The notes under the pieces were generated by a model. It worked only from the letters and a program-made list of their open reading frames with translations. It was not told where the DNA came from and ran no database searches. The position numbers and the translations under genes are program-made. Positions 2,299 to 16,243 of a DNA stretch of 18,325 bases are shown here, one piece after another (within the stretch, counting starts at the first letter, position 1; each line of letters opens with the position of its first letter). This stretch comes from Candidatus Woesearchaeota archaeon. Its GTDB lineage: Archaea > Nanobdellota > Nanobdellia > Woesearchaeales > SKGA01. The DNA is taken from NCBI GenBank assembly GCA_016926395.1, contig JAFGOT010000030.1, forward strand, positions 1 to 18,325. Reading direction: 5' to 3'.

Positions 2299-4104
2299 AT
2301 GGCAACTGACGTATTCATAAATTACAAATTTAGCGGTAAAGTTAAAGACGGTCAAGCTTTTGTTGAAAGAATTATTTCTGAACGAAGAATGAATAGACTT
2401 CCTCGTGATGTAAATGTATTTCATGACCCTCGAACTGGTAACGTTTATGTTGAAACAAGCCGAGGTCGAGCTGTTCGTCCGCTAGTTGTTGTTAAAGAAG
2501 GAAAATCAACTTTAACAAAAAGACATGCAGAACAACTTATCAAAAACGAAATTTCCTGGTCTGATTTGGTCAAACAAGGAATCGTTGAATATCTTGACAG
2601 CAGTGAAGAAGAAAATGCATATGTTGCATTCTTTGAAAAAGATTTAACTCCAGAACATACTCATCTGGAAGTTAGTCCTGTTGATATTGTTGGTGTTGCA
2701 ACTGGTCTTGTTCCTTTTGGGAATCACAATCAGGGTGCACGTTTACTTCAAGGTTCTAAAAACCAGAAACAAGGTATTGGATTTTATGCAGCAAACTTCT
2801 CTGTTCGAATGGACATGGATACTAACTTGCTTCATTACCCACAAGTTCCTATTGTTTCAACAATCCTGCACGATTTAGCACAATATGATAAACATCCATC
2901 TGGTCAAAATGTTATGGTTGCAATTATGTCCTTCCAAGGTTTCAACATGGAAGATGCAATTATTTTAAACCAAGGTAGTGTTGATAGAGGTTTAGCACGA
3001 AGTCATTATTTCAAACCAATGATTGCTGAAGAACTTCGATACTCTGGTGGTTTATTAGATGAAATTGGAACTCCTGACAAAGATGTTAAAGGTTACAAAT
3101 CCGAACGTGATTACAGATTCTTAGAAGATGATGGAATTATTTTCCCAGAAGCAACTGTTCATGAAGGTGATGTTGTTATCGGTAAAACTTCTCCTCCAAG
3201 ATTCTTAAACTCTATGGATGAATACAACTTAGCAACAAGTTCTAGACGTGAATCTTCTATGAGTATGGCTCATGGTCAAGAAGGAACTGTTGATATGGTT
3301 TACTTAACTGAAAATGCTGAAGGTAATAAACTTATTCAAGTAAGACTTCGAGAACAAAGAATTCCAGAAATGGGAGATAAGTTCACTTCTCGTCATGCAC
3401 AAAAAGGTGTAGTAAGTTTAATCGTTCCTGAAGTAGATGTTCCTTTTACATCCACCGGTATTAAACCAGACATTATTTTCTCACCACATGGTATTCCTTC
3501 TCGGATGACTGTAGGTCACTTATTAGAATTACTAGGTGGAAAAGTTGGTGCTCTTGGTGGTCGATACATTGATGGAACTCTTTTCCAAGAAGAAAATGAA
3601 AAAGATATGAGACAAGAACTTTTATCTTATGGCTTCAAAGAAAATGGGACTGAAACAATGTACAATGGTACAACTGGTGAAGAATATAAAGTTCAAATTT
3701 ATGTTGGTCCAATGTACTACTTAAGACTAAAACATCAAGTTCGAAATAAAGTTCACTCTCGAGCTAGAGGTCCAATCCAGCTATTAACAAGACAGCCTAC
3801 TGAAGGTCGTCTAAAAGAAGGAGGACTTCGATTAGGAGAGATGGAGAAAGATACTTTCGTAGCTCACGGAGCAAGTCTTCTTCTAAAAGAAAGATTTGAT
3901 TCTGACCGAACTATTCTTCCAATTAGTGAAGAAGCAGGTATTACTGCTGTTCATGATACAAGACGAGATAAATACTTCTGTCCAGTTAATGGAGAGAATG
4001 CAGATATTTCTAACATCGAGATGTCATATGCTTTCAAACTTATCCTTGATGAGTTTAAGTCATTATGTATCTATCCAAAATTGGAGTTAAAATCAAAATA
4101 CTAA
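2299..4104 (+). CDS. rpoB1: RNA polymerase subunit B' (Rpo2 C-terminal half)
   Basis: GFNMEDA, GDKFTSRHAQKG, YYLRLKH, RQPTEGR..GGLRLGEME motifs; ATG 2299 after GGAG, 1 nt after the rpoB'' stop. Confidence 0.97.
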   Translation: MATDVFINYKFSGKVKDGQAFVERIISERRMNRLPRDVNVFHDPRTGNVYVETSRGRAVRPLVVVKEGKSTLTKRHAEQLIKNEISWSDLVKQGIVEYLDSSEEENAYVAFFEKDLTPEHTHLEVSPVDIVGVATGLVPFGNHNQGARLLQGSKNQKQGIGFYAANFSVRMDMDTNLLHYPQVPIVSTILHDLAQYDKHPSGQNVMVAIMSFQGFNMEDAIILNQGSVDRGLARSHYFKPMIAEELRYSGGLLDEIGTPDKDVKGYKSERDYRFLEDDGIIFPEATVHEGDVVIGKTSPPRFLNSMDEYNLATSSRRESSMSMAHGQEGTVDMVYLTENAEGNKLIQVRLREQRIPEMGDKFTSRHAQKGVVSLIVPEVDVPFTSTGIKPDIIFSPHGIPSRMTVGHLLELLGGKVGALGGRYIDGTLFQEENEKDMRQELLSYGFKENGTETMYNGTTGEEYKVQIYVGPMYYLRLKHQVRNKVHSRARGPIQLLTRQPTEGRLKEGGLRLGEMEKDTFVAHGASLLLKERFDSDRTILPISEEAGITAVHDTRRDKYFCPVNGENADISNIEMSYAFKLILDEFKSLCIYPKLELKSKY

Positions 4105-4113
4105 GGTGGAAAA

Positions 4114-6717
4114 ATGATTAACGATAAAGAATTTATATCAAAAAAAGTTGGTTCAATCACCTTTGGTATTATGGGTCCAAAGTTCATTAAAGATACTGCT
4201 AGTGCAAAAATTGTTACTCCAGAACTTTATGATAAAGAAGGTTATCCTGTTGACGGAGGTCTTATGGATGTTCGTCTTGGTGTGATTGATCCTGGACTTA
4301 AGTGTAAAACTTGTGGTTTGAAACTTAAAGAATGTCCTGGTCACTTCGGTTACATCGAACTTGCAAGACCTGTAGTTCATATCAAATTTGTTGAATTAGT
4401 TCTTGATTTACTTCGACTTACATGTCGTGGCTGTTCAAGAGTTTTGCTTCCTGATGGTAAAGTTCAAGAAATAAAAGATGATCTTGAAAGAATTAGTACT
4501 TTTGGAAGTGATGTTGAACGAAGAAATTATCTTAAAGAATTAACAGCAAGTCTAAAGACTGTAACTAAATGTCCTCACTGTGGTGAAAAACAAGCTAAAG
4601 TTAAACTTGAAAAACCAACCACTTTCCTTGAAGATGAAAAAAGAATCAGTCCTATTGAAGTTCGTTCAAGATTTGAAAAAATTACTGATGAAGATTTAGA
4701 ATTAATAGGTATTAGCTCTCAAACAGCAAGACCTGAATGGTCTATTCTAACTGTTCTTCCTATTCCGCCAGTAACTATGAGGCCAAGTATTACTCTAGAA
4801 TCTGGAGAAAGAAGTGAAGATGACTTAACTCATAAGTTAGGGGATATTGTTAGAATTAACCAAAGACTTTTCGAAAACATAAATGCTGGTGCTCCAGAAA
4901 TTATTGTTGAGGATTTGTGGGATTTACTTCAATACCACGTAACAACTTTCTTTGACAACGATGTTTCTCAATTACCTCCAGCTCGTCATCGAAGTGGTCA
5001 ACCTCTAAAGACTTTAACTTCAAGAATAAAATCTAAAGAAGGTCGAATTAGACATAACCTTGCAGGGAAACGTGTAAACTTCTCCGCTCGTGCTGTTATT
5101 AGTCCTGATCCAAAATTAGAAATTAACGAAGTTGGTGTTTCAAGAGAATTCGCAAGAAAACTTACAGTTCCTGAAAAAATCACTGAATGGAATAAAGATT
5201 ATTTACGTAAATTTGTTGAAGCTGGTCCTGACAATTATCCGGGATCAAACTACATTGTTCGACCAGATGGCCGACGAAAACAAATTACTGATGAAACTAA
5301 AGAACAGCTTCTTGAAGAACTTGAGCCAGGATTAATTGTTGAAAGACATTTACTTGACGGCGATGTTGTAATCTTCAACCGGCAACCATCTCTTCACAAA
5401 ATGAGTATGATGTGTCACCGTGTTCGTGTTCTTGATGGTTTAACTCTACGTCTAAACCCTGCAGTATGTGCTCCATACAACGCAGACTTTGATGGTGACG
5501 AGATGAACCTTCACGTTCCACAAACTGAAGAAGCTAGAGCTGAAGCTGAAATTTTAATGCAAGTTCAAACTCAGCTTATCTCTCCACGTTACGGTTTGTC
5601 TATTATTGGATGTAACCAAGACGCAATTTCAGGTAACTATCTTTTAACTAAAAAAGGCTTTGAAGTTTCTTACTCTGAAGCTGTTGATATGATTATGGCA
5701 ATTGGAGAAACTGATTTTTCTCGTTTGCCTAAAAAAGAAATGGTTACTGGTAAAGAAATCTTTAGTGTTTTGCTTCCAGAGGACTTATCCTTTAAAGCAC
5801 CAAACAAACTTTACAAAGCAAACCCAGAAGATCCTGAAGGAATGGTTGTAATTAAAGATGGTGTTTTAACTCAAGGTGTTCTTGACAAACAAAACTTAGG
5901 AGATGGTTCAGGTTTACTACTTAGACAAATCCACAAAATTTATGGTCCTGATAAGACTGTTGTTTTCCTTGGTAAAATCTACCGATTAGGTATTGAAACT
6001 CTTTACCGACGTGGATTCACTGTAAGTATTAGTGATACTGATTTATCACAAGAAGGAGAATCTCAAGTTAATGAGACCATTCTATCTGCAGAAAAAGAAG
6101 TTGCAAAATTAATTGAACAATACGAAGCTGGAAAACTTGAAGCTCTTCCTGGTCGAAGTACAAGAGAAACTTTCGAACTTGAAGTTTTAAGAATCCTAAA
6201 CAAAGCACGTAACGATGCAGGTACTATTGTAACTGATACTGCAAAACACTCTAACACTATTGACATGATTAAATCTGGTGCTAGAGGAAACGTAATCAAC
6301 ATTGCTCAGATGTCTGCAATTGTAGGTCAACAGGACCTTCGTGGTGGACGAGTTAACAAAGGTTACGTTAACCGAACATTATCTTGTTTCAAAGAAAATG
6401 ATTTAGGTGCAGCTGCTCACGGTTTCATCCGAAATGGTTTCAAATCTGGTCTTCTTCCTCATGAAGCATTTTTCATGGGTATGACTGGTCGAGATTCACT
6501 GATGGATACTGCGCTTCGAACACCAAAATCTGGTTACTTATACCGAAGATTAGCAAATGCTATGCAGGATTTAAAAGTTGAATATGACTTCACTGTTCGA
6601 GATGCATCTGGTAAAATTGTTCAGTTTGTATATGGTGAAGATGGAATTGATGTTTCCAAAAGTGAAGGTGGTATTCTAAATGTCAAGAAAATTATTGCTG
6701 AGGTATTGGAGGAATAA
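4114..6717 (+). CDS. rpoA1: RNA polymerase subunit A' (Rpo1N)
   Basis: Catalytic YNADFDGDEMN; zinc motifs CKTC..CPGH and CRGC..CPHC; DTALRTPKSGYLYRRL bridge helix; SD AAGGTGG. Confidence 0.98.
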   Translation: MINDKEFISKKVGSITFGIMGPKFIKDTASAKIVTPELYDKEGYPVDGGLMDVRLGVIDPGLKCKTCGLKLKECPGHFGYIELARPVVHIKFVELVLDLLRLTCRGCSRVLLPDGKVQEIKDDLERISTFGSDVERRNYLKELTASLKTVTKCPHCGEKQAKVKLEKPTTFLEDEKRISPIEVRSRFEKITDEDLELIGISSQTARPEWSILTVLPIPPVTMRPSITLESGERSEDDLTHKLGDIVRINQRLFENINAGAPEIIVEDLWDLLQYHVTTFFDNDVSQLPPARHRSGQPLKTLTSRIKSKEGRIRHNLAGKRVNFSARAVISPDPKLEINEVGVSREFARKLTVPEKITEWNKDYLRKFVEAGPDNYPGSNYIVRPDGRRKQITDETKEQLLEELEPGLIVERHLLDGDVVIFNRQPSLHKMSMMCHRVRVLDGLTLRLNPAVCAPYNADFDGDEMNLHVPQTEEARAEAEILMQVQTQLISPRYGLSIIGCNQDAISGNYLLTKKGFEVSYSEAVDMIMAIGETDFSRLPKKEMVTGKEIFSVLLPEDLSFKAPNKLYKANPEDPEGMVVIKDGVLTQGVLDKQNLGDGSGLLLRQIHKIYGPDKTVVFLGKIYRLGIETLYRRGFTVSISDTDLSQEGESQVNETILSAEKEVAKLIEQYEAGKLEALPGRSTRETFELEVLRILNKARNDAGTIVTDTAKHSNTIDMIKSGARGNVINIAQMSAIVGQQDLRGGRVNKGYVNRTLSCFKENDLGAAAHGFIRNGFKSGLLPHEAFFMGMTGRDSLMDTALRTPKSGYLYRRLANAMQDLKVEYDFTVRDASGKIVQFVYGEDGIDVSKSEGGILNVKKIIAEVLEE

Positions 6718-11022: not shown

Positions 11023-11757
11023 ATGAAAACTAAAATGCTACATTTTACTGATTCGTATCTTAAAGAGTGTGATTCTAAGGTTTTATCCATAGCCGAGCAT
11101 GATGGAAAAATATTGGTTGAACTTGACCAAACCTGCTTTTATCCTGAAAGTGGCGGTCAACCATCTGATAATGGTCAAATAATTAACGATCAAGGAATCG
11201 TGTTTGGGATGTCTTATGCGTATAAATTTGATAACAAAGTTCTTCACATCGTTGATAAAGTTGGTTTATCTGTTGGTGATTTAGTTCATTGTAAGCTTAA
11301 TTGGGATGATAGGTATAGAAATATGCAATTTCATACTGCAATTCATGTCGTGACGCGTCTTATTGAGCGTGATACGCCAATTAAAGTTTCTAGTAATAAT
11401 GCGACCTTAGAAAAAGCTCGTATTGATTTTACTCTTGATGAATTTGATAGGGAATTCTTAGGTTCTTTTGAGGCTAAAGCTAATGAATTAATTAAACAGA
11501 ATTTACCAATTAAGACTTATATTCTAACCAGAGAAGAGGCAGAGAAAGATCCTGATGTATTTCGACTTGCAAAAGGTTTTGATGAATCCATTCAAGATAT
11601 TCGAATTGTTCAAATGGGGGATGATGATGCTATTTTTGATAGAACTGCTTGTGGTGGAGCTCATCTTGCAAACACAAGTGAAATACCGAAAATAAAATTT
11701 TTGAAATTAGAAAATAAAGGTGCTCAAAGAAGAAGGATTAATTTTACTTTTGAGTGA
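11023..11757 (+). CDS. alaXM: Alanyl-tRNA editing protein AlaX-M (free-standing trans-editing deacylase)
   Basis: N-terminal LDQTCFYPESGGQPSD, zinc ligands HTAIH (HxxxH) and CGGAH (CxxxH), 244 aa. Confidence 0.93.
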   Translation: MKTKMLHFTDSYLKECDSKVLSIAEHDGKILVELDQTCFYPESGGQPSDNGQIINDQGIVFGMSYAYKFDNKVLHIVDKVGLSVGDLVHCKLNWDDRYRNMQFHTAIHVVTRLIERDTPIKVSSNNATLEKARIDFTLDEFDREFLGSFEAKANELIKQNLPIKTYILTREEAEKDPDVFRLAKGFDESIQDIRIVQMGDDDAIFDRTACGGAHLANTSEIPKIKFLKLENKGAQRRRINFTFE

Positions 11758-12457
11758 TTGTTTTTTTAGGAAATAGTTCTTTGTCAAGTTCATCTAGTAG
11801 TGGTCTTAAGTCGTCCATCTTTTGAGCTTGCTCTAAATCAAATACTTTTTTTTCTTCTTCGCTTAGATTTTGATATTTTATTTCTTCTCTCATCTCAAAT
11901 AAATCGTTCTCTGCTCCGATAAATCTAGCGCATTCAAGAAGTTCTCTTGACTCCATTGCTCCTGATTTGTAAACCTCTCTTAACAATGTGTTTTCTTCTG
12001 CAAGTCCTTCCTGATATAATTCTAAGAATTTTTTACTGTTAATATTTTGATTTATTAAGTATTGTGCAGCGCTTTCTATGTCTTTTTCTGTTGTGAGGAA
12101 CGAAATGTCGTTATGAAATGAATCACTTTGTGCTGTTGTTTTAATCCTTGTGTTGATTTCTATTCCTGTATTTGCAACTTTTAAAACTCCATGAAAGTAT
12201 GTTTTAACCATTGGGTCTTCTATTTCATAACCTGTAACTAATGAAATAACTTGGTAGCTTTTGTTTTGGTTAGCTGCTTTGATTTCTTTTTCTGGAAGTG
12301 ATTCTTCTGCGTAATATTTTGATTTATTTTTATCTGGTTCTGCCATTGAATAAATGTCAAAATTTTGTGTTGTTATAACTATGCGTGATATTTCTTTTTT
12401 CTTTAAGTCTTCTAAACATTCGTTTATTGTATCTGTTAATTTTTTTAGTTCTTTCAT
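11744..12457 (-). CDS. Hypothetical protein, paralog of 12965..13639
   Basis: 237-aa ORF aligning along its length with the 224-aa ORF; 3' end overlaps alaX by 14 nt. Confidence 0.85.
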   Translation of the reverse strand: MKELKKLTDTINECLEDLKKKEISRIVITTQNFDIYSMAEPDKNKSKYYAEESLPEKEIKAANQNKSYQVISLVTGYEIEDPMVKTYFHGVLKVANTGIEINTRIKTTAQSDSFHNDISFLTTEKDIESAAQYLINQNINSKKFLELYQEGLAEENTLLREVYKSGAMESRELLECARFIGAENDLFEMREEIKYQNLSEEEKKVFDLEQAQKMDDLRPLLDELDKELFPKKTITQK

Positions 12458-12458
12458 T

Positions 12459-12932
12459 TTATTTTGGTATTAGTGATTTAAAGTTAAACTCAGGATTAAC
12501 TTCAGATAGGGGTATTAAAATGTATTCAATTCCATAATATTGTGCAGAGTCTAAGTCTTGAACGCTATCTCCTATCATTATTGTTTCTTCTTTAGGTATT
12601 TTGTATTCTTCACAAATTGTTTGGAGATTTTTTATTTCTCGCCAGTTTTCTTCATCAAACCAAACATCGTTTGAATAATATATTTTATCAACAAGTTTTC
12701 CAAGGCCATTAAGTAAAGGCTCAACTTCTTCTTGGTTTGTATCGCTTGCTATAACAACATACTTTTCATCTTGGTTTTTGTAGTGTTTGAATACTTCTTC
12801 GATTCCTTTTCTTGGTTTTCCACTGTCAATTTCATCCGTAGATGTGTTTGATTCAATAGTTGTTCCAAGAAAGTCAAAAATAATTAATTTCTTGCTGTCC
12901 GGTATACTGTCTAAGCTTCCAAGTCTGCCCAT
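12459..12932 (-). CDS. Small, apparently capless HAD-superfamily hydrolase with variant motif I
   Basis: LIIFDFLGT (motif I), VIASD (motif II), IKN (motif III), IMIGDSVQDLDSA (motif IV). Confidence 0.8.
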   Translation of the reverse strand: MGRLGSLDSIPDSKKLIIFDFLGTTIESNTSTDEIDSGKPRKGIEEVFKHYKNQDEKYVVIASDTNQEEVEPLLNGLGKLVDKIYYSNDVWFDEENWREIKNLQTICEEYKIPKEETIMIGDSVQDLDSAQYYGIEYILIPLSEVNPEFNFKSLIPK

Positions 12933-12964
12933 AAGTCTCTGCCTTTTGTGTTGTTGTTTTGTTT

Positions 12965-13639
12965 TTAAATTAGTTTCTTGTATTCTTCAACTTTCTTATT
13001 GATTTTCTTTAAAATGTCTTGTTTAGCTATTTTTACTCTCGCACTTTGTAGATATTTATCTGCACCAATAGGCTGATCTTCTAGTTTTTCTCTAGCTTCA
13101 ATAGCTCCTGATTCTTCCATTAATCTAACAGTAACATCGTTGTATTCTTTAACTCCTCTGTCAAATATTTTTTTGAATTCTTTACTATTGATTCCTAAAT
13201 CCACAAGGTAAGTTGCAACTTCTTCTATTGCGCTTTCATTTTCGAATTCTGCAAATTGCCATTCATTAACATATTTGTTATTTTCAAAATCATCAATTCC
13301 CATTGTATAAGTTGGGTTTCTAGTTATGATTTCAATACCGCATTCTTTTTTGTCTTTTTCTTGAAATACGTGGCTAACAGGAGATTGTTTTAGAACTCTT
13401 GGTTCATGTCCGTTTACAAGCGCGATGGTTTGATAGTTCTCGCCATAATTTTTTGCTTGTATTTCTAATTCTGGAAGTGTATTTGGATGATAATATGCCT
13501 TTTCTTCGTTATTGACCCATCCGCCTGCTCTTTTTCCTTCGAAGTTTTGTGCTAGAATGACTGCTCGACCTATCTGTTTCTTTTCTAGTTCGGTTAAGCA
13601 TTCCTTGATTGTGCTTGTTAAATCGTTTATTTTACCCAT
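12965..13639 (-). CDS. Hypothetical protein, paralog of 11744..12457
   Basis: 224-aa ORF, SD GAGGT upstream, TATA at 13681-13688; homology to the downstream paralog. Confidence 0.85.
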   Translation of the reverse strand: MGKINDLTSTIKECLTELEKKQIGRAVILAQNFEGKRAGGWVNNEEKAYYHPNTLPELEIQAKNYGENYQTIALVNGHEPRVLKQSPVSHVFQEKDKKECGIEIITRNPTYTMGIDDFENNKYVNEWQFAEFENESAIEEVATYLVDLGINSKEFKKIFDRGVKEYNDVTVRLMEESGAIEAREKLEDQPIGADKYLQSARVKIAKQDILKKINKKVEEYKKLI

Positions 13640-13688: not shown

Positions 13689-13738
13689 GTTTATGTTTTG
13701 AAACTACTGGGAAGTGACAATAAAAAAGATAAGAAACC

Positions 13739-13746
13739 TTTATAAA
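13739..13746 (+). promoter_or_regulatory. TATA box for tRNA-Gln
   Basis: AAGAAACC-TTTATAAA about 65 nt upstream of the tRNA. Confidence 0.5.
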
Positions 13747-13811
13747 TGGATTTTTACTCCCTAAACCTACACTGTTTCCAGTTTTTAGGAAGCGAAAATA
13801 AGCTGTTTTAC

Positions 13812-13884
13812 AGCCCCATGGTGTAGTGGCCAATCATCGGGGATTTTGGGTCCCTGGACCTCGGTTCAAATCCGGGTGGGGCTA
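13812..13884 (+). tRNA. trnQ: tRNA-Gln(TTG), CCA not encoded
   Basis: Acceptor AGCCCCA/TGGGGCT (A1-U72, typical of archaeal tRNA-Gln), anticodon stem GGGGA/TCCCT with loop TT-TTG-GG, T-arm CTCGG-TTCAAAT-CCGGG. Confidence 0.95.
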
Positions 13885-13953
13885 TTGGTCCTCCGTGCCT
13901 TATGGAGGACTCTTCATTTTTAATTCTGTATTTTTAGGCTTTGTGCTCGCAGA
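13878..13953 (+). repeat. 76-bp direct repeat, copy 1 (attL-like; last 7 nt of tRNA-Gln plus 69 nt downstream)
   Basis: Identical to 15033-15108; extends to 81 bp with one mismatch (13873/15028). Confidence 0.97.
13888..13921 (+). terminator. Hairpin plus T-tract after tRNA-Gln (duplicated at 15043-15076)
   Basis: GTCCTCCGT-gcctt-ATGGAGGAC (9 bp, one G.T) followed by TCTTCATTTTT. Confidence 0.65.
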
Positions 13954-13965
13954 ATTTGATGTTGT

Positions 13966-14011
13966 TTAGGTGGCCACAAATATTTGTATTTTTATTTTTG
14001 TAGTCACTTAA
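13966..14011. repeat. 46-bp dyad site A (13-20-13) overlapping the Fic stop codon
   Basis: TTAGGTGGCCACA-AATATTTGTATTTTTATTTT-TGTAGTCACTTAA. Confidence 0.85.
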
Positions 14012-14915
14012 TTTTTTTGAATGTTTTCTTGTATTGTTTTATTAGAAATTGAATTGTTGGTCTTAATTTGTCATTTTGTGAATACTCATACAGGACCCAA
14101 TAATATTCACTTCTGTCTTCTAATGCTATGTTTATTGGTGGATAGTTATTTTTTATAAGTATATAATTTAATAATAATCTTCCTACGCGTCCATTTCCGT
14201 CTTGGAATGGATGCATATATTCAAATTGATTATGTATTATTGCTGCTAAAATTAATGGTTTGAATTTTGATTTGTTTTTTTTATACCATTTAATAAATTC
14301 TTCAAGTTCCAAGATTAATTCGTTTGCAGGTGTTCCTTTGTGAATTACAGTTCCATCTCTTGCTTTTATGACAACTTCTAATTTTCTAAATTGTCCTGCA
14401 AACTCTTTTGAACCTTCAAAGCAGAATTTATGTAATTTTAAAATTAAACTAATTGATAATTCTTGTTTGGTTGTTCGAATAAATTCTATTGCTTTTGCTA
14501 CACCTTTTGTTTCTATTTCATCCGAATTAAGATTTTGTTTTTTTTGTAATATACTTGGAACATCTTCTTTTAAGACCGTTGATCCTTCTATTGCATTTGT
14601 ATTGTATGTGAACTCTTCTGTGAATAAGTTCCATTTTTTTTCATCAAAATGAGAAATCTTTATTTTTTCATTATATTTGTTTAATGCTTGTATTTCTTTT
14701 GGTGTTAATGAAAAATTAAATATGTTCGTTTCTATTTCTTTGATTTGATTGTGTATTGTAATTTTTGCAAATTTTTTTGCGTCTTCTAATTCTTCTTTTG
14801 TTAAATTGGTTCCTAGAAACTTTCGAATTTTAATTACTTTGTTAGTCTCATCTCTATATGAATGAGATAAATAATATTTGGTGTTTTTCCCAGAAATCCT
14901 TTTTTCAACAAACAT
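14004..14915 (-). CDS. Fic-domain protein (class II) with an N-terminal extension, about 303 aa
   Basis: Intact Fic motif HPFQDGNGRVGR; inhibitory (S/T)xxxE(G/N) motif TNAIEG upstream of it. ATG 14915 preferred over GTG 14966 because TTTAAATA lies 22 nt upstream. Confidence 0.93.
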   Translation of the reverse strand: MFVEKRISGKNTKYYLSHSYRDETNKVIKIRKFLGTNLTKEELEDAKKFAKITIHNQIKEIETNIFNFSLTPKEIQALNKYNEKIKISHFDEKKWNLFTEEFTYNTNAIEGSTVLKEDVPSILQKKQNLNSDEIETKGVAKAIEFIRTTKQELSISLILKLHKFCFEGSKEFAGQFRKLEVVIKARDGTVIHKGTPANELILELEEFIKWYKKNKSKFKPLILAAIIHNQFEYMHPFQDGNGRVGRLLLNYILIKNNYPPINIALEDRSEYYWVLYEYSQNDKLRPTIQFLIKQYKKTFKKIK

Positions 14916-14924
14916 ATAACTATC

Positions 14925-14970
14925 TAAGGTGACTACATATTTAAATATTTCTATTTTTGTGGTCACCTAA
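14925..14970. repeat. 46-bp dyad site B (13-20-13) containing the likely Fic TATA box
   Basis: TAAGGTGACTACA-TATTTAAATATTTCTATTTT-TGTGGTCACCTAA; same geometry as site A, right-hand 25 bp identical at 22/25. Confidence 0.85.
14938..14945 (-). promoter_or_regulatory. TATA box of fic (probably a leaderless transcript)
   Basis: Minus strand AAAATAGAAATA-TTTAAATA, 22 nt before ATG 14915; no SD. Confidence 0.6.
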
Positions 14971-15032
14971 GTGGTTATTTTGTAGTGTTTTTTCCGAGTT
15001 TTATGTATATATTAAGCCAACTGATGTCGGGC

Positions 15033-15108
15033 GGGGCTATTGGTCCTCCGTGCCTTATGGAGGACTCTTCATTTTTAATTCTGTATTTTTAGGCTTTGTG
15101 CTCGCAGA
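15033..15108 (+). repeat. 76-bp direct repeat, copy 2 (attR-like)
   Basis: Identical to 13878-13953. Confidence 0.97.
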
Positions 15109-15235
15109 TTTTATTCTTGCTTAGCAAGTTTTAGTTGTCTCATATTTTTTTCAAGATTAATTTCATTGTTGTTTAAATTTAGTTGTATTTATTTATTAGA
15201 CAAATTTATAAACAAATAAAATTTACTCCTGAGAA

Positions 15236-15592
15236 ATGACTAAAGAAAACTATATTTATGAACGTGCTAATATACTTAGAGATTATGTTAATGGCTATGT
15301 TTTGAATCCTTTGAACGGTTTTTATCAACTTGCTGTTAAATTAAATACTTCTTCCGTTTTGTCTAACGTTCCTAATTTTGATGGTCCAAAGGCTTACTTT
15401 TCTGAACGTAATTTAGTTGTTGAAGATTATTTATCTTCTGAAACTATTTGTGTTCTTGACAGTTTAGTTTCTAAATTGAATTCTTTACAACCTTTATCTT
15501 TAGAGAAAAAACCTTTTGTTGATGATGTTCATTATGTTCTTTCTTGTTTTGTAAAACAATCTATTTTAGATATTTCTTTTGATTCTAATTAA
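15236..15592 (+). CDS. Hypothetical protein (118 aa)
   Basis: ATG-started ORF with TTTATAAA (15205-15212) 23 nt upstream; no recognised motif. Confidence 0.65.
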   Translation: MTKENYIYERANILRDYVNGYVLNPLNGFYQLAVKLNTSSVLSNVPNFDGPKAYFSERNLVVEDYLSSETICVLDSLVSKLNSLQPLSLEKKPFVDDVHYVLSCFVKQSILDISFDSN

Positions 15593-15949: not shown

Positions 15950-16243
15950 ATGTCAAGACCAAGAAAAATGCGAAGAATTAGAGGAAACCCTAATTCTTTA
16001 TACTTTAAAACTGCTGGAGTTAGAATGCTTGATTTAGACGAAGTTATCTTAACAAGAGCTGAATTTGAAGCTTTACGATTACGAGATGTAGAAGATTTCG
16101 AACAGAAATTGTGTGCAGAAAAAATGGATATTTCTCAACCTACATTTCACAGATTATTACTTGCTGCAAGAAAAAAAGTGGCTGATGGCATAGTCCTTGG
16201 CAAAGCAATTAGAATAGATGGTGGTAAAACAGGCGATGAATGA
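15950..16243 (+). CDS. DUF134 (UPF0251) helix-turn-helix protein
   Basis: MSRPRK.RRI, EFEALRL.D, AEKMDISQPTFHRLL..ARKKVADG.V.GKAIRIDGG. Confidence 0.92.
   Translation: MSRPRKMRRIRGNPNSLYFKTAGVRMLDLDEVILTRAEFEALRLRDVEDFEQKLCAEKMDISQPTFHRLLLAARKKVADGIVLGKAIRIDGGKTGDE

Follow-up and report, generated by a model that had tools for sequence, protein, structure and literature searches.

Fic proteins that regulate their own genes, islands targeted to tRNA genes and integrase-less derivatives of such islands are all known kinds. To our knowledge, almost nothing is known of gene regulation and mobility in DPANN archaea. The locus described here lies in an 18,325-nucleotide stretch of DNA (contig JAFGOT010000030.1, hereafter the window) from the 1.0-Mb, 82%-complete genome of an uncultivated DPANN archaeon, whose close protein relatives carry Woesearchaeota or Nanoarchaeota labels. 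It holds a fic gene bracketed by two 46-bp dyads, site A at the stop codon and site B upstream of the start. An earlier note, made from the sequence alone, had proposed these dyads as the recombination sites of a new gene-cassette system. The locus is probably an autoregulated single-gene class II Fic module, forming an 1155-bp islet at the 3' end of a tRNA-Gln gene and integrated there by a recombinase acting in trans.

CccR of Yersinia pseudotuberculosis is a Fic protein with a DNA-binding domain which represses its own promoter (PMC9755527). The window protein resembles it in joining a Fic AMP (adenosine monophosphate)-transferase and a predicted DNA-binding domain in one polypeptide, with autorepression predicted. 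In CccR, however, the domain is C-terminal and the protein is a secreted effector of a type VI secretion system, while the window protein is archaeal and carries an N-terminal domain of a different, beta3-alpha fold, and its gene bears a further predicted site at the 3' end. SoFic, a single-gene class II anti-phage defence, is likewise a self-inhibited single gene on mobile islands, and PADLOC matches the window protein to it (E 8e-31). That match is confined to the Fic core (model positions 33-265 of 361) and is not full-length: the region of the SoFic C-terminal domain is unmatched, and the window protein ends about 5 residues past the match and has its N-terminal domain instead. The NCBIfam SoFic equivalog scored 54 bits against a cut-off of 550. 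The window Fic is predicted to be an enzyme of the toxin or defence type.

Autoregulated type II toxin-antitoxin operons have promoters overlapped by palindromic or repeated operators, as is predicted for the window module. Among MNT-HEPN modules, DPANN MNT-HepT operons are headed by the same N-terminal domain and half-sites. The window module differs from toxin-antitoxin operons in having no separate antitoxin gene, an intramolecular inhibitory helix, an archaeal promoter with a TATA box and transcription factor B recognition element (BRE), and an extra putative operator at the stop codon.

The insertion resembles tRNA-targeted elements and their derivatives of the cis-mobilizable element (CIME) type in its tRNA 3'-end direct repeat, the empty site in a relative and the tandem attachment (att) arrays with cargo. 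It differs in its small unit, about 1.1 kb long with a single gene, and a cognate integrase was not found. Integron gene cassettes and their attC sites, including those of archaeal integrons (PMC9668308), were also compared. Integron cassettes are similar in being single-ORF (open reading frame), often of toxin-antitoxin or defence type, in co-oriented arrays and with repeats that form imperfect hairpins. In the islets the repeats are copies of the tRNA-Gln 3' end, the dyads have no RYYYAAC/GTTRRRY boxes, there is no adjacent IntI or attI, and each cassette has its own promoter. Finally, the modelled Fic N-terminal domain recalls the arm-type N-terminal domains of tyrosine integrases and AP2-like domains, which have a three-stranded antiparallel sheet on a helix and recognise sites of about 10 bp, direct or inverted. 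The structural similarity is weak (Z ~4.7; TM 0.52-0.55) and a sequence match is lacking, and the fusion partners of the domain are enzymes other than recombinases.

Literature searches found no description of the N-terminal domain, of these dyads or of DPANN tRNA-Gln cassette arrays. What appears to be new is a predicted DPANN DNA-binding domain family with an operator code, a conserved putative 3' operator, and minimal cassettes stacked at tRNA-Gln.

The fic cassette is inserted at the 3' end of tRNA-Gln

The fic gene came as a small mobile cassette whose joints are copies of the tRNA-Gln 3' end with the core CGGGNGGGGCTAT. A repeat search of the window recovered a direct repeat of 85-97 bp (family D1: 97 nt, 94% identity, spacing 1155 bp). 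Its copies bracket both dyads and are identical over positions 13879-13956 of the left one. The repeat opens with the last 12 nt of tRNA-Gln(UUG) and runs through the trailer hairpin of the tRNA (13887-13911), and its junctions lie 11 and 57 bp outside the dyads. The GC content within the insert is 0.26, compared with about 0.33 around it. Against an expectation of 0.01, the window has two occurrences of the 13-nt core CGGGNRGGGCTAT, and no third att copy was found elsewhere in the same genome. An Rfam scan of 13700-15300 found nothing besides the tRNA.

The uninterrupted site was found by alignment in a congener (genome G007, contig C4; G numbers denote genomes and L numbers loci compared, G000 being the window's own genome). 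It has one copy of the repeat, and the sequence past this copy corresponds to the right flank of the insert in the window (after 15111), not to site A.

Direct repeats of tRNA ends are typical for site-specific integration by tyrosine recombinases. Here fic is the only gene between the repeats and the element encodes no integrase. Of the features of a tRNA-targeted element, the islet has the repeat at both junctions and the empty site in a relative, and lacks its own integrase. Because the islet is without a recombinase, the enzyme would have to act in trans, as a tyrosine recombinase encoded elsewhere. There are no tyrosine recombinase genes in the window; the genome has 4-5, on other contigs. 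The repeat is nearly perfect over 84 bp and so is recent. No close orthologue was found on viral contigs (best 36% identity, Fic core only), and there is therefore no evidence for a virus carrying the cassette.

One region of the same genome (G000:C30:543-6226) contains two tyrosine-recombinase genes and a third sub-threshold match within 6 kb, and is a candidate source of a trans-acting integrase.

Five further genomes have Fic cassettes with this core at their borders, tRNA-Gln or its 13-bp 3' end bracketing the cassette (L112, L244, L237/G376, G005 and L113). L112, whose Fic is 75% identical, lies beside tRNA-Gln(CUG) and has two partial core copies in addition (three copies in total). In L244 a partial copy adjoins fic and is followed by a second island of 4.3 kb and then tRNA-Gln(UUG). 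Three core copies are present in G005, and a variant core stands on either side of the cassette in L113. The most extended case is G376, in which six partial copies, all in the same orientation, follow an intact tRNA-Gln end within 10.6 kb. None of the six segments so delimited contains an integrase; one, of 1121 bp, is a Fic cassette that has the two dyads, and a Fic paralogue lies in another. The window, L112, L244 and G376 have in common a junction in which GT directly precedes CGGGCGGGGCTAT. That the partial copies share this junction points to a homologous element end at the att site, beyond the dyads.

The G376 array (L250, G376:C7:72000-87000) has att copies at 4070, 4517, 8897, 10333, 11454, 12414 and 14697. 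The genes in its segments include two for Fic proteins, one for an AAA_14/DUF4143 ATPase, those for TrmB-like regulators and one of the isocitrate-lyase family, but not one for an integrase.

Other orthologues use other targets, with direct repeats of 12-190 bp that always lie outside the dyads. The full 9.4-kb contig of a 72%-identical orthologue contained no integrase. In L070 (2742-2932 and 4020-4210; also L044) a Fic cassette sits in the 5' region of a 720-aa gene, about 190 bp of which is duplicated; this target differs from tRNA-Gln. A possible common motif in the repeats of L044, L070 and L051, GTCGG(G)CGGGAG, was set aside, since it and the tRNA-Gln core run in opposite directions relative to fic.

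The islet may alternatively not have been mobilised as a unit, being the decayed remnant of a larger integrase-bearing element at tRNA-Gln. Remnants of tRNA-linked elements are common, and the extra partial att copies beside some cassettes indicate decay and accretion. This explanation is possible, although it is the less likely one: minimal Fic-only units recur between att copies (1155 bp here, 1121 bp in G376), no integrase fragments were found inside the insert, and the near-perfect repeat speaks for a recent event. Tiny integrase-less cassettes at tRNA-Gln may be one route by which 1-Mb genomes acquire defence or toxin genes. The earlier proposal of a mobile gene cassette thus stands in so far as fic is mobile as a single gene, with a low-GC insert, an empty site in a congener and other contexts elsewhere; the dyads are not its joints.

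A class II Fic protein with an unannotated N-terminal domain

The gene starts at the ATG at 14915, not at the GTG at 14966. Its product matches the Pfam Fic family (E 5e-20), and the best solved relative is human FICD (E 5e-25; Foldseek 6i7g, E 2e-13, probability 1.0). The catalytic motif HxFx(D/E)GNGRxxR is present as HPFQDGNGRVGR at residues 235-246. The inhibitory helix motif (S/T)xxxE(G/N) is found N-terminally to the core as TNAIEG (residues 106-111) and is invariant in 39 homologues. In the AlphaFold2 model (predicted local distance difference test score, pLDDT, 93.6) three strands and a long helix, formed by residues 1-62, precede the FICD-like core. A homodimer prediction scored 0.00, which speaks neither for nor against binding as a dimer.

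A profile search with the N-terminal domain against PDB sequences was empty, and Foldseek against PDB gave nothing at E <= 0.001. The entries 3jtz (Z 4.7) and 6sy0 (Z 4.8) stood among many unrelated matches at Z 5-6. The Atlas neighbours of the domain include the N-termini of integrases and of IS1634 transposases (TM 0.52-0.55). The arm-binding domain of the high-pathogenicity island (HPI) integrase is also a structural neighbour. All these scores are too low to prove kinship.

In L046 an MNT nucleotidyltransferase is matched at its N-terminus by the profile of the domain (hhalign probability 94.7%, E 6e-8), and the promoter of that gene bears the same half-sites as the fic dyads. Among 1.8 billion representative proteins searched, the domain also occurs in fusions with MNT, HAD hydrolase, methyltransferase and phosphoenolpyruvate (PEP)-utiliser proteins. 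The promoters of three of these non-Fic fusions were read. L124 (MNT) has an identical dyad clamping the TATA box and three tandem half-sites, L125 (HAD) has three co-oriented half-sites of closely related sequence, the last between TATA box and ATG, and L126 (PEP-utiliser) has a diverged direct repeat in the promoter. All Fic paralogues of the family carry the domain. A 203-aa protein with several cysteines, encoded in the window's own genome (L123, G000:C5, 1492-2103) has an N-terminus weakly like the domain (E 0.005); a matching dyad was not seen upstream of it.

The type of half-site appears to follow the protein, varying with a residue in strand 3 of the domain. Arg at residue 31 goes with GTGAC arms, and Ser or Ala at 31 together with Arg at 29 goes with GTGTC arms, a correlation that is confounded by phylogeny within the Fic family. 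The non-Fic fusions L124 and L125 obey the same pattern. This yields a testable protein-DNA pair, an unannotated domain of about 60 residues and a half-site of about 10 bp, which recurs with Fic, MNT, HAD and further enzymes of numerous uncultivated lineages.

The dyads are conserved at both ends of fic

In the window the dyads have the anatomy that the earlier note gave them. Both are exact matches to TWARGTGRCYACA-N20-TGTRGYCACYTWA, a pattern found in none of 200 shuffles, with a start-to-start distance of 959 bp and the arms and spacers as described. The last 12 nt of the spacers agree at 11 of 12 positions. The fic stop codon TGA (14004-14006) lies inside arm A2, the inner arm of site A, and the TATA box lies within the spacer of site B, where the ATG follows 9 nt beyond the proximal arm.

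For comparison, 34 orthologous Fic loci (46-75% protein identity) were taken from genomes and metagenomes. In 30 of them the upstream dyad is kept, at -49 to -53 from the ATG. The TATA box fills the 3' end of its spacer (19-21 nt, rarely 17, 22 or 23 nt), and a gap of about 10 nt separates the proximal arm from the ATG. An operator of an archaeal promoter would be expected to hold such a fixed position relative to TATA box and start codon across orthologues. The downstream dyad is found at the stop codon in 32 of the 34 loci, mostly with the same arm type as the upstream one. Its first arm is inside the reading frame in some loci and outside in others, and is kept either way. Its spacers cluster at 9-12 and 19-21 nt (14 nt in two loci); lengths of about 10 and 20 nt fit whole helical turns.

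The half-site consensus is GGTG(A/T)C(C/T)ACA, roughly 10-13 bp, with two half-sites per dyad. In 167 kb of these loci, 86 of the 90 strict half-sites fall within the two dyad windows, although these cover just 3.9% of the sequence (0.3 in shuffles). The remaining four are all in L046, three upstream of the MNT gene and one in a duplicated downstream dyad. The Fic paralogues of the family each have their own dyad around the TATA box, one with direct repeats instead.

A motif-first search was also conducted with the strict dyad in 401 genomes of the class, with the reversed motif as control. Matches were found in 40 genomes and the control gave 0. At 24 of the 30 loci fetched, a directly adjacent gene carries the N-terminal domain, and one more has a Fic remnant. 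Five others (L215, L229, L233, L235 and L236, centred at about 1501-1532) have solo dyads of the form GGTGWCYACA-N11-12-TGTRGWCACC. These solo dyads adjoin small ribbon-helix-helix (RHH)-, PIN- or toxin-antitoxin-like genes, and may be relics or trans-regulated operators. Looser CYACA-N8-24-TGTRG dyads are not enriched in the window's own genome (19 matches, 44 in the reversed control).

The dyads look like binding sites for the N-terminal domain of Fic itself

The dyads look like binding sites for the N-terminal domain of the Fic protein that they flank, not like recombination sites. By this reading the domain would bind at site B to the half-sites that flank the BRE/TATA box of its own gene, the proximal half-site covering the transcription start of an almost leaderless mRNA. 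The bound protein would shut off its own promoter, an autorepression of a potentially toxic enzyme. At the stop codon, site A would repeat this operator. That the same protein would bind there is supported by the conservation of site A, its sequence likeness to site B and its spacing in helical phase. Most likely it would serve as an auxiliary operator or a roadblock, bridging the ends of the gene to aid repression or insulating the cassette and the tRNA from read-through. The role of site A is a guess and the least supported step of the scheme. If the scheme is correct, the 3' end of a toxin-type gene bears a conserved second operator.

Several observations weigh against autoregulation or against transfer in trans. 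The N-terminal domain has no Pfam match at E <= 10, and a wide structure search returned only matches to a common arrangement (Z 4.7-6), which are non-specific. The correlation between residues and half-sites has the phylogenetic confounder given above. The five solo dyads, with spacings of 11-12 nt, have no gene for the domain within 1.5 kb. The arms of site A are weaker in the window (10/13), no promoter or gene follows it, and we know of no precedent for a 3' operator among modules of the toxin-antitoxin type. On the side of mobility, significant flanking direct repeats are present at only about 7 of 32 orthologous loci, and none of the genome's 4-5 tyrosine recombinases is linked to the tRNA-Gln att site.

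The dyads could also be the operators of a separate trans-acting regulator, with the N-terminal domain in another role such as substrate or partner binding. DNA binding by the domain is only predicted, its fold search is non-specific, and the solo dyads lack a nearby gene for it, all of which would suit this alternative. It is nevertheless unlikely. Domain and sites co-occur across four enzyme fusions and in most of the motif-first loci, and paralogue-specific dyads track paralogue-specific domains. In the window's own genome the sites are at one gene only, so a dedicated extra regulator would be needed.

Slightly less likely again is that site B alone is an operator and site A a 3' hairpin of RNA or single-stranded DNA which would end or stabilise the fic transcript. 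In the mRNA, site A forms the transcribed 3' end, its loop (the spacer) varies in length among loci, and the antisense strand of the spacer is T-rich, like an archaeal terminator signal. The hairpin of site A is poor, however (-3.2 kcal/mol, z -1.3, for single-stranded DNA; site B: -8.1 kcal/mol, z -4.6), and many arm pairs have non-wobble mismatches. The arms follow the upstream operator type of their locus, which a structural hairpin would not need, and the spacers prefer the two lengths given above.

The autoregulation reading has a speculative extension, which we regard as improbable. The tRNA-Gln gene of Woese- and Nanoarchaeota-type DPANN archaea would be the anchor of an integron-like capture platform, where integrase-less cassettes are stacked by a recombinase encoded elsewhere, and Fic, binding both ends of its gene, may aid its own recombination. 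The platform cassettes, of one or a few genes, would each end in a copy of the tRNA-Gln 3' end and trailer hairpin. Since the dyads would flank att in the excised circle and the fold is like that of integrase arm-binding domains, the N-terminal domain of Fic could be an architectural recombination factor.

The dyads are very probably not recombination sites

The earlier note had argued that the arms sort like recombination products, the outer arms of the two sites resembling each other and the inner arms likewise. This sorting is present in the window, where it depends on one informative base (C/T at arm position 10), and is absent as a pattern in 29 non-redundant orthologous loci. The mean summed identities (of 26) were 21.0 for outer/outer plus inner/inner, 20.6 within sites and 20.8 for direct pairing (p 0.10 and 0.51). 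The note was right that the dyads are unlike dif (11-6-11) or loxP/FRT (13-8-13), as their spacers are 20 nt here and 9-23 nt in orthologues, not 6-8 bp, and that they are unlike attC, as neither has RYYYAAC/GTTRRRY boxes. It had also suggested a scan of related genomes for further sites. In the window's own genome and 17 others of the family the motif was found at this locus only, and the dyads detected elsewhere sit operator-like at genes encoding the Fic N-terminal domain, an outcome that the note itself had listed as speaking against its proposal.

In L046 a direct repeat of 88 bp (3900-3990 and 4806-4896) flanks a 0.8-kb insertion with a ParE-type toxin-antitoxin set. The repeat consists of the Fic downstream dyad and a second dyad (TTACCCTCTACA...TGTAGTGGGTAA), and a dyad-containing stretch has therefore itself been a duplicated target.

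That sites A and B are attL/attR-like hybrids, whose excision would give a 959-bp circle and a single A1-B2 site, is thus very improbable: two directly oriented sites do bracket exactly one gene and this bracketing is kept in about 30 loci, the fold of the putative binding domain recalls integrase arm-binding domains, and the L046 duplication and the five solo dyads leave a small doubt, but the insertion boundaries and the empty site are at the tRNA-Gln repeats outside both dyads, homologous cassettes share the GT junction beyond them, the sorting does not recur, the upstream site keeps a fixed distance to TATA box and ATG and half-sites occur as direct repeats at non-Fic genes too, the downstream spacers vary from 9 to 21 nt, the dyad-att-dyad stretch that the inferred circle would contain measures 38 to 294 bp depending on the locus, and no recombinase gene was found beside a dyad at any locus examined. 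This removes a false lead.

Features of the locus and its surroundings

The coordinates of the features are collected in Table 1.

Table 1. Features of the fic islet and its insertion site in the window
Feature	Position	Strand	Remarks
tRNA-Gln (UUG), integration target	13812-13884	+	ARAGORN; Rfam tRNA 48 bits; same gene in congeners, some with intron
Left direct-repeat copy (attL-like)	13873-13969	+	core CGGGTGGGGCTAT at 13873-13885; repeat family D1
Site A, downstream (D) dyad	13966-14011	-	arms 13966-13978 and 13999-14011, 20-nt spacer; overlaps fic stop
fic, 303 aa, class II (self-inhibited) Fic/FIDO AMP-transferase-type protein	14004-14915	-	
Part of fic encoding the beta-beta-beta-alpha domain at the N-terminus (residues 1-62)	14730-14915	-	predicted DNA-binding module, from models
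Site B, upstream (U) dyad, read as putative promoter-operator	14925-14970	-	distal arm 14958-14970, proximal arm 14925-14937
TATA box TTTAAATA	14938-14945	-	in spacer of site B
Element-borne 57-bp segment, site B to right repeat	14971-15027	.	without counterpart in the G007 empty site
Right direct-repeat copy (attR-like)	15028-15124	+	partial tRNA 3' end CGGGCGGGGCTAT at 15028-15040, element-type GT before it

The tRNA-Gln gene has an intron of about 40 nt, placed after position 38 of the window's tRNA, in four congeners (G005:C36, G007:C4, G010:C14 and G011:C16; loci L012, L004, L013 and L014), unlike the intron-free copy of the window. On its other side, a minus-strand block of three genes (11744-13639; a 237-aa unknown, a HAD hydrolase and a 224-aa unknown) parts a 244-aa gene (11023-11757) from the tRNA. 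In the congeners G012 and G017 the 244-aa gene abuts the tRNA directly, and the 1.9-kb block is therefore a second indel at the locus. The 224-aa protein was checked in the Atlas as a possible recombinase, with nothing usable found. Downstream of the islet, the first gene in common with G007 is a DUF134 gene (15950-16243). The genes between tRNA-Gln and DUF134 differ from those of G007, so the downstream side of the tRNA is variable too.

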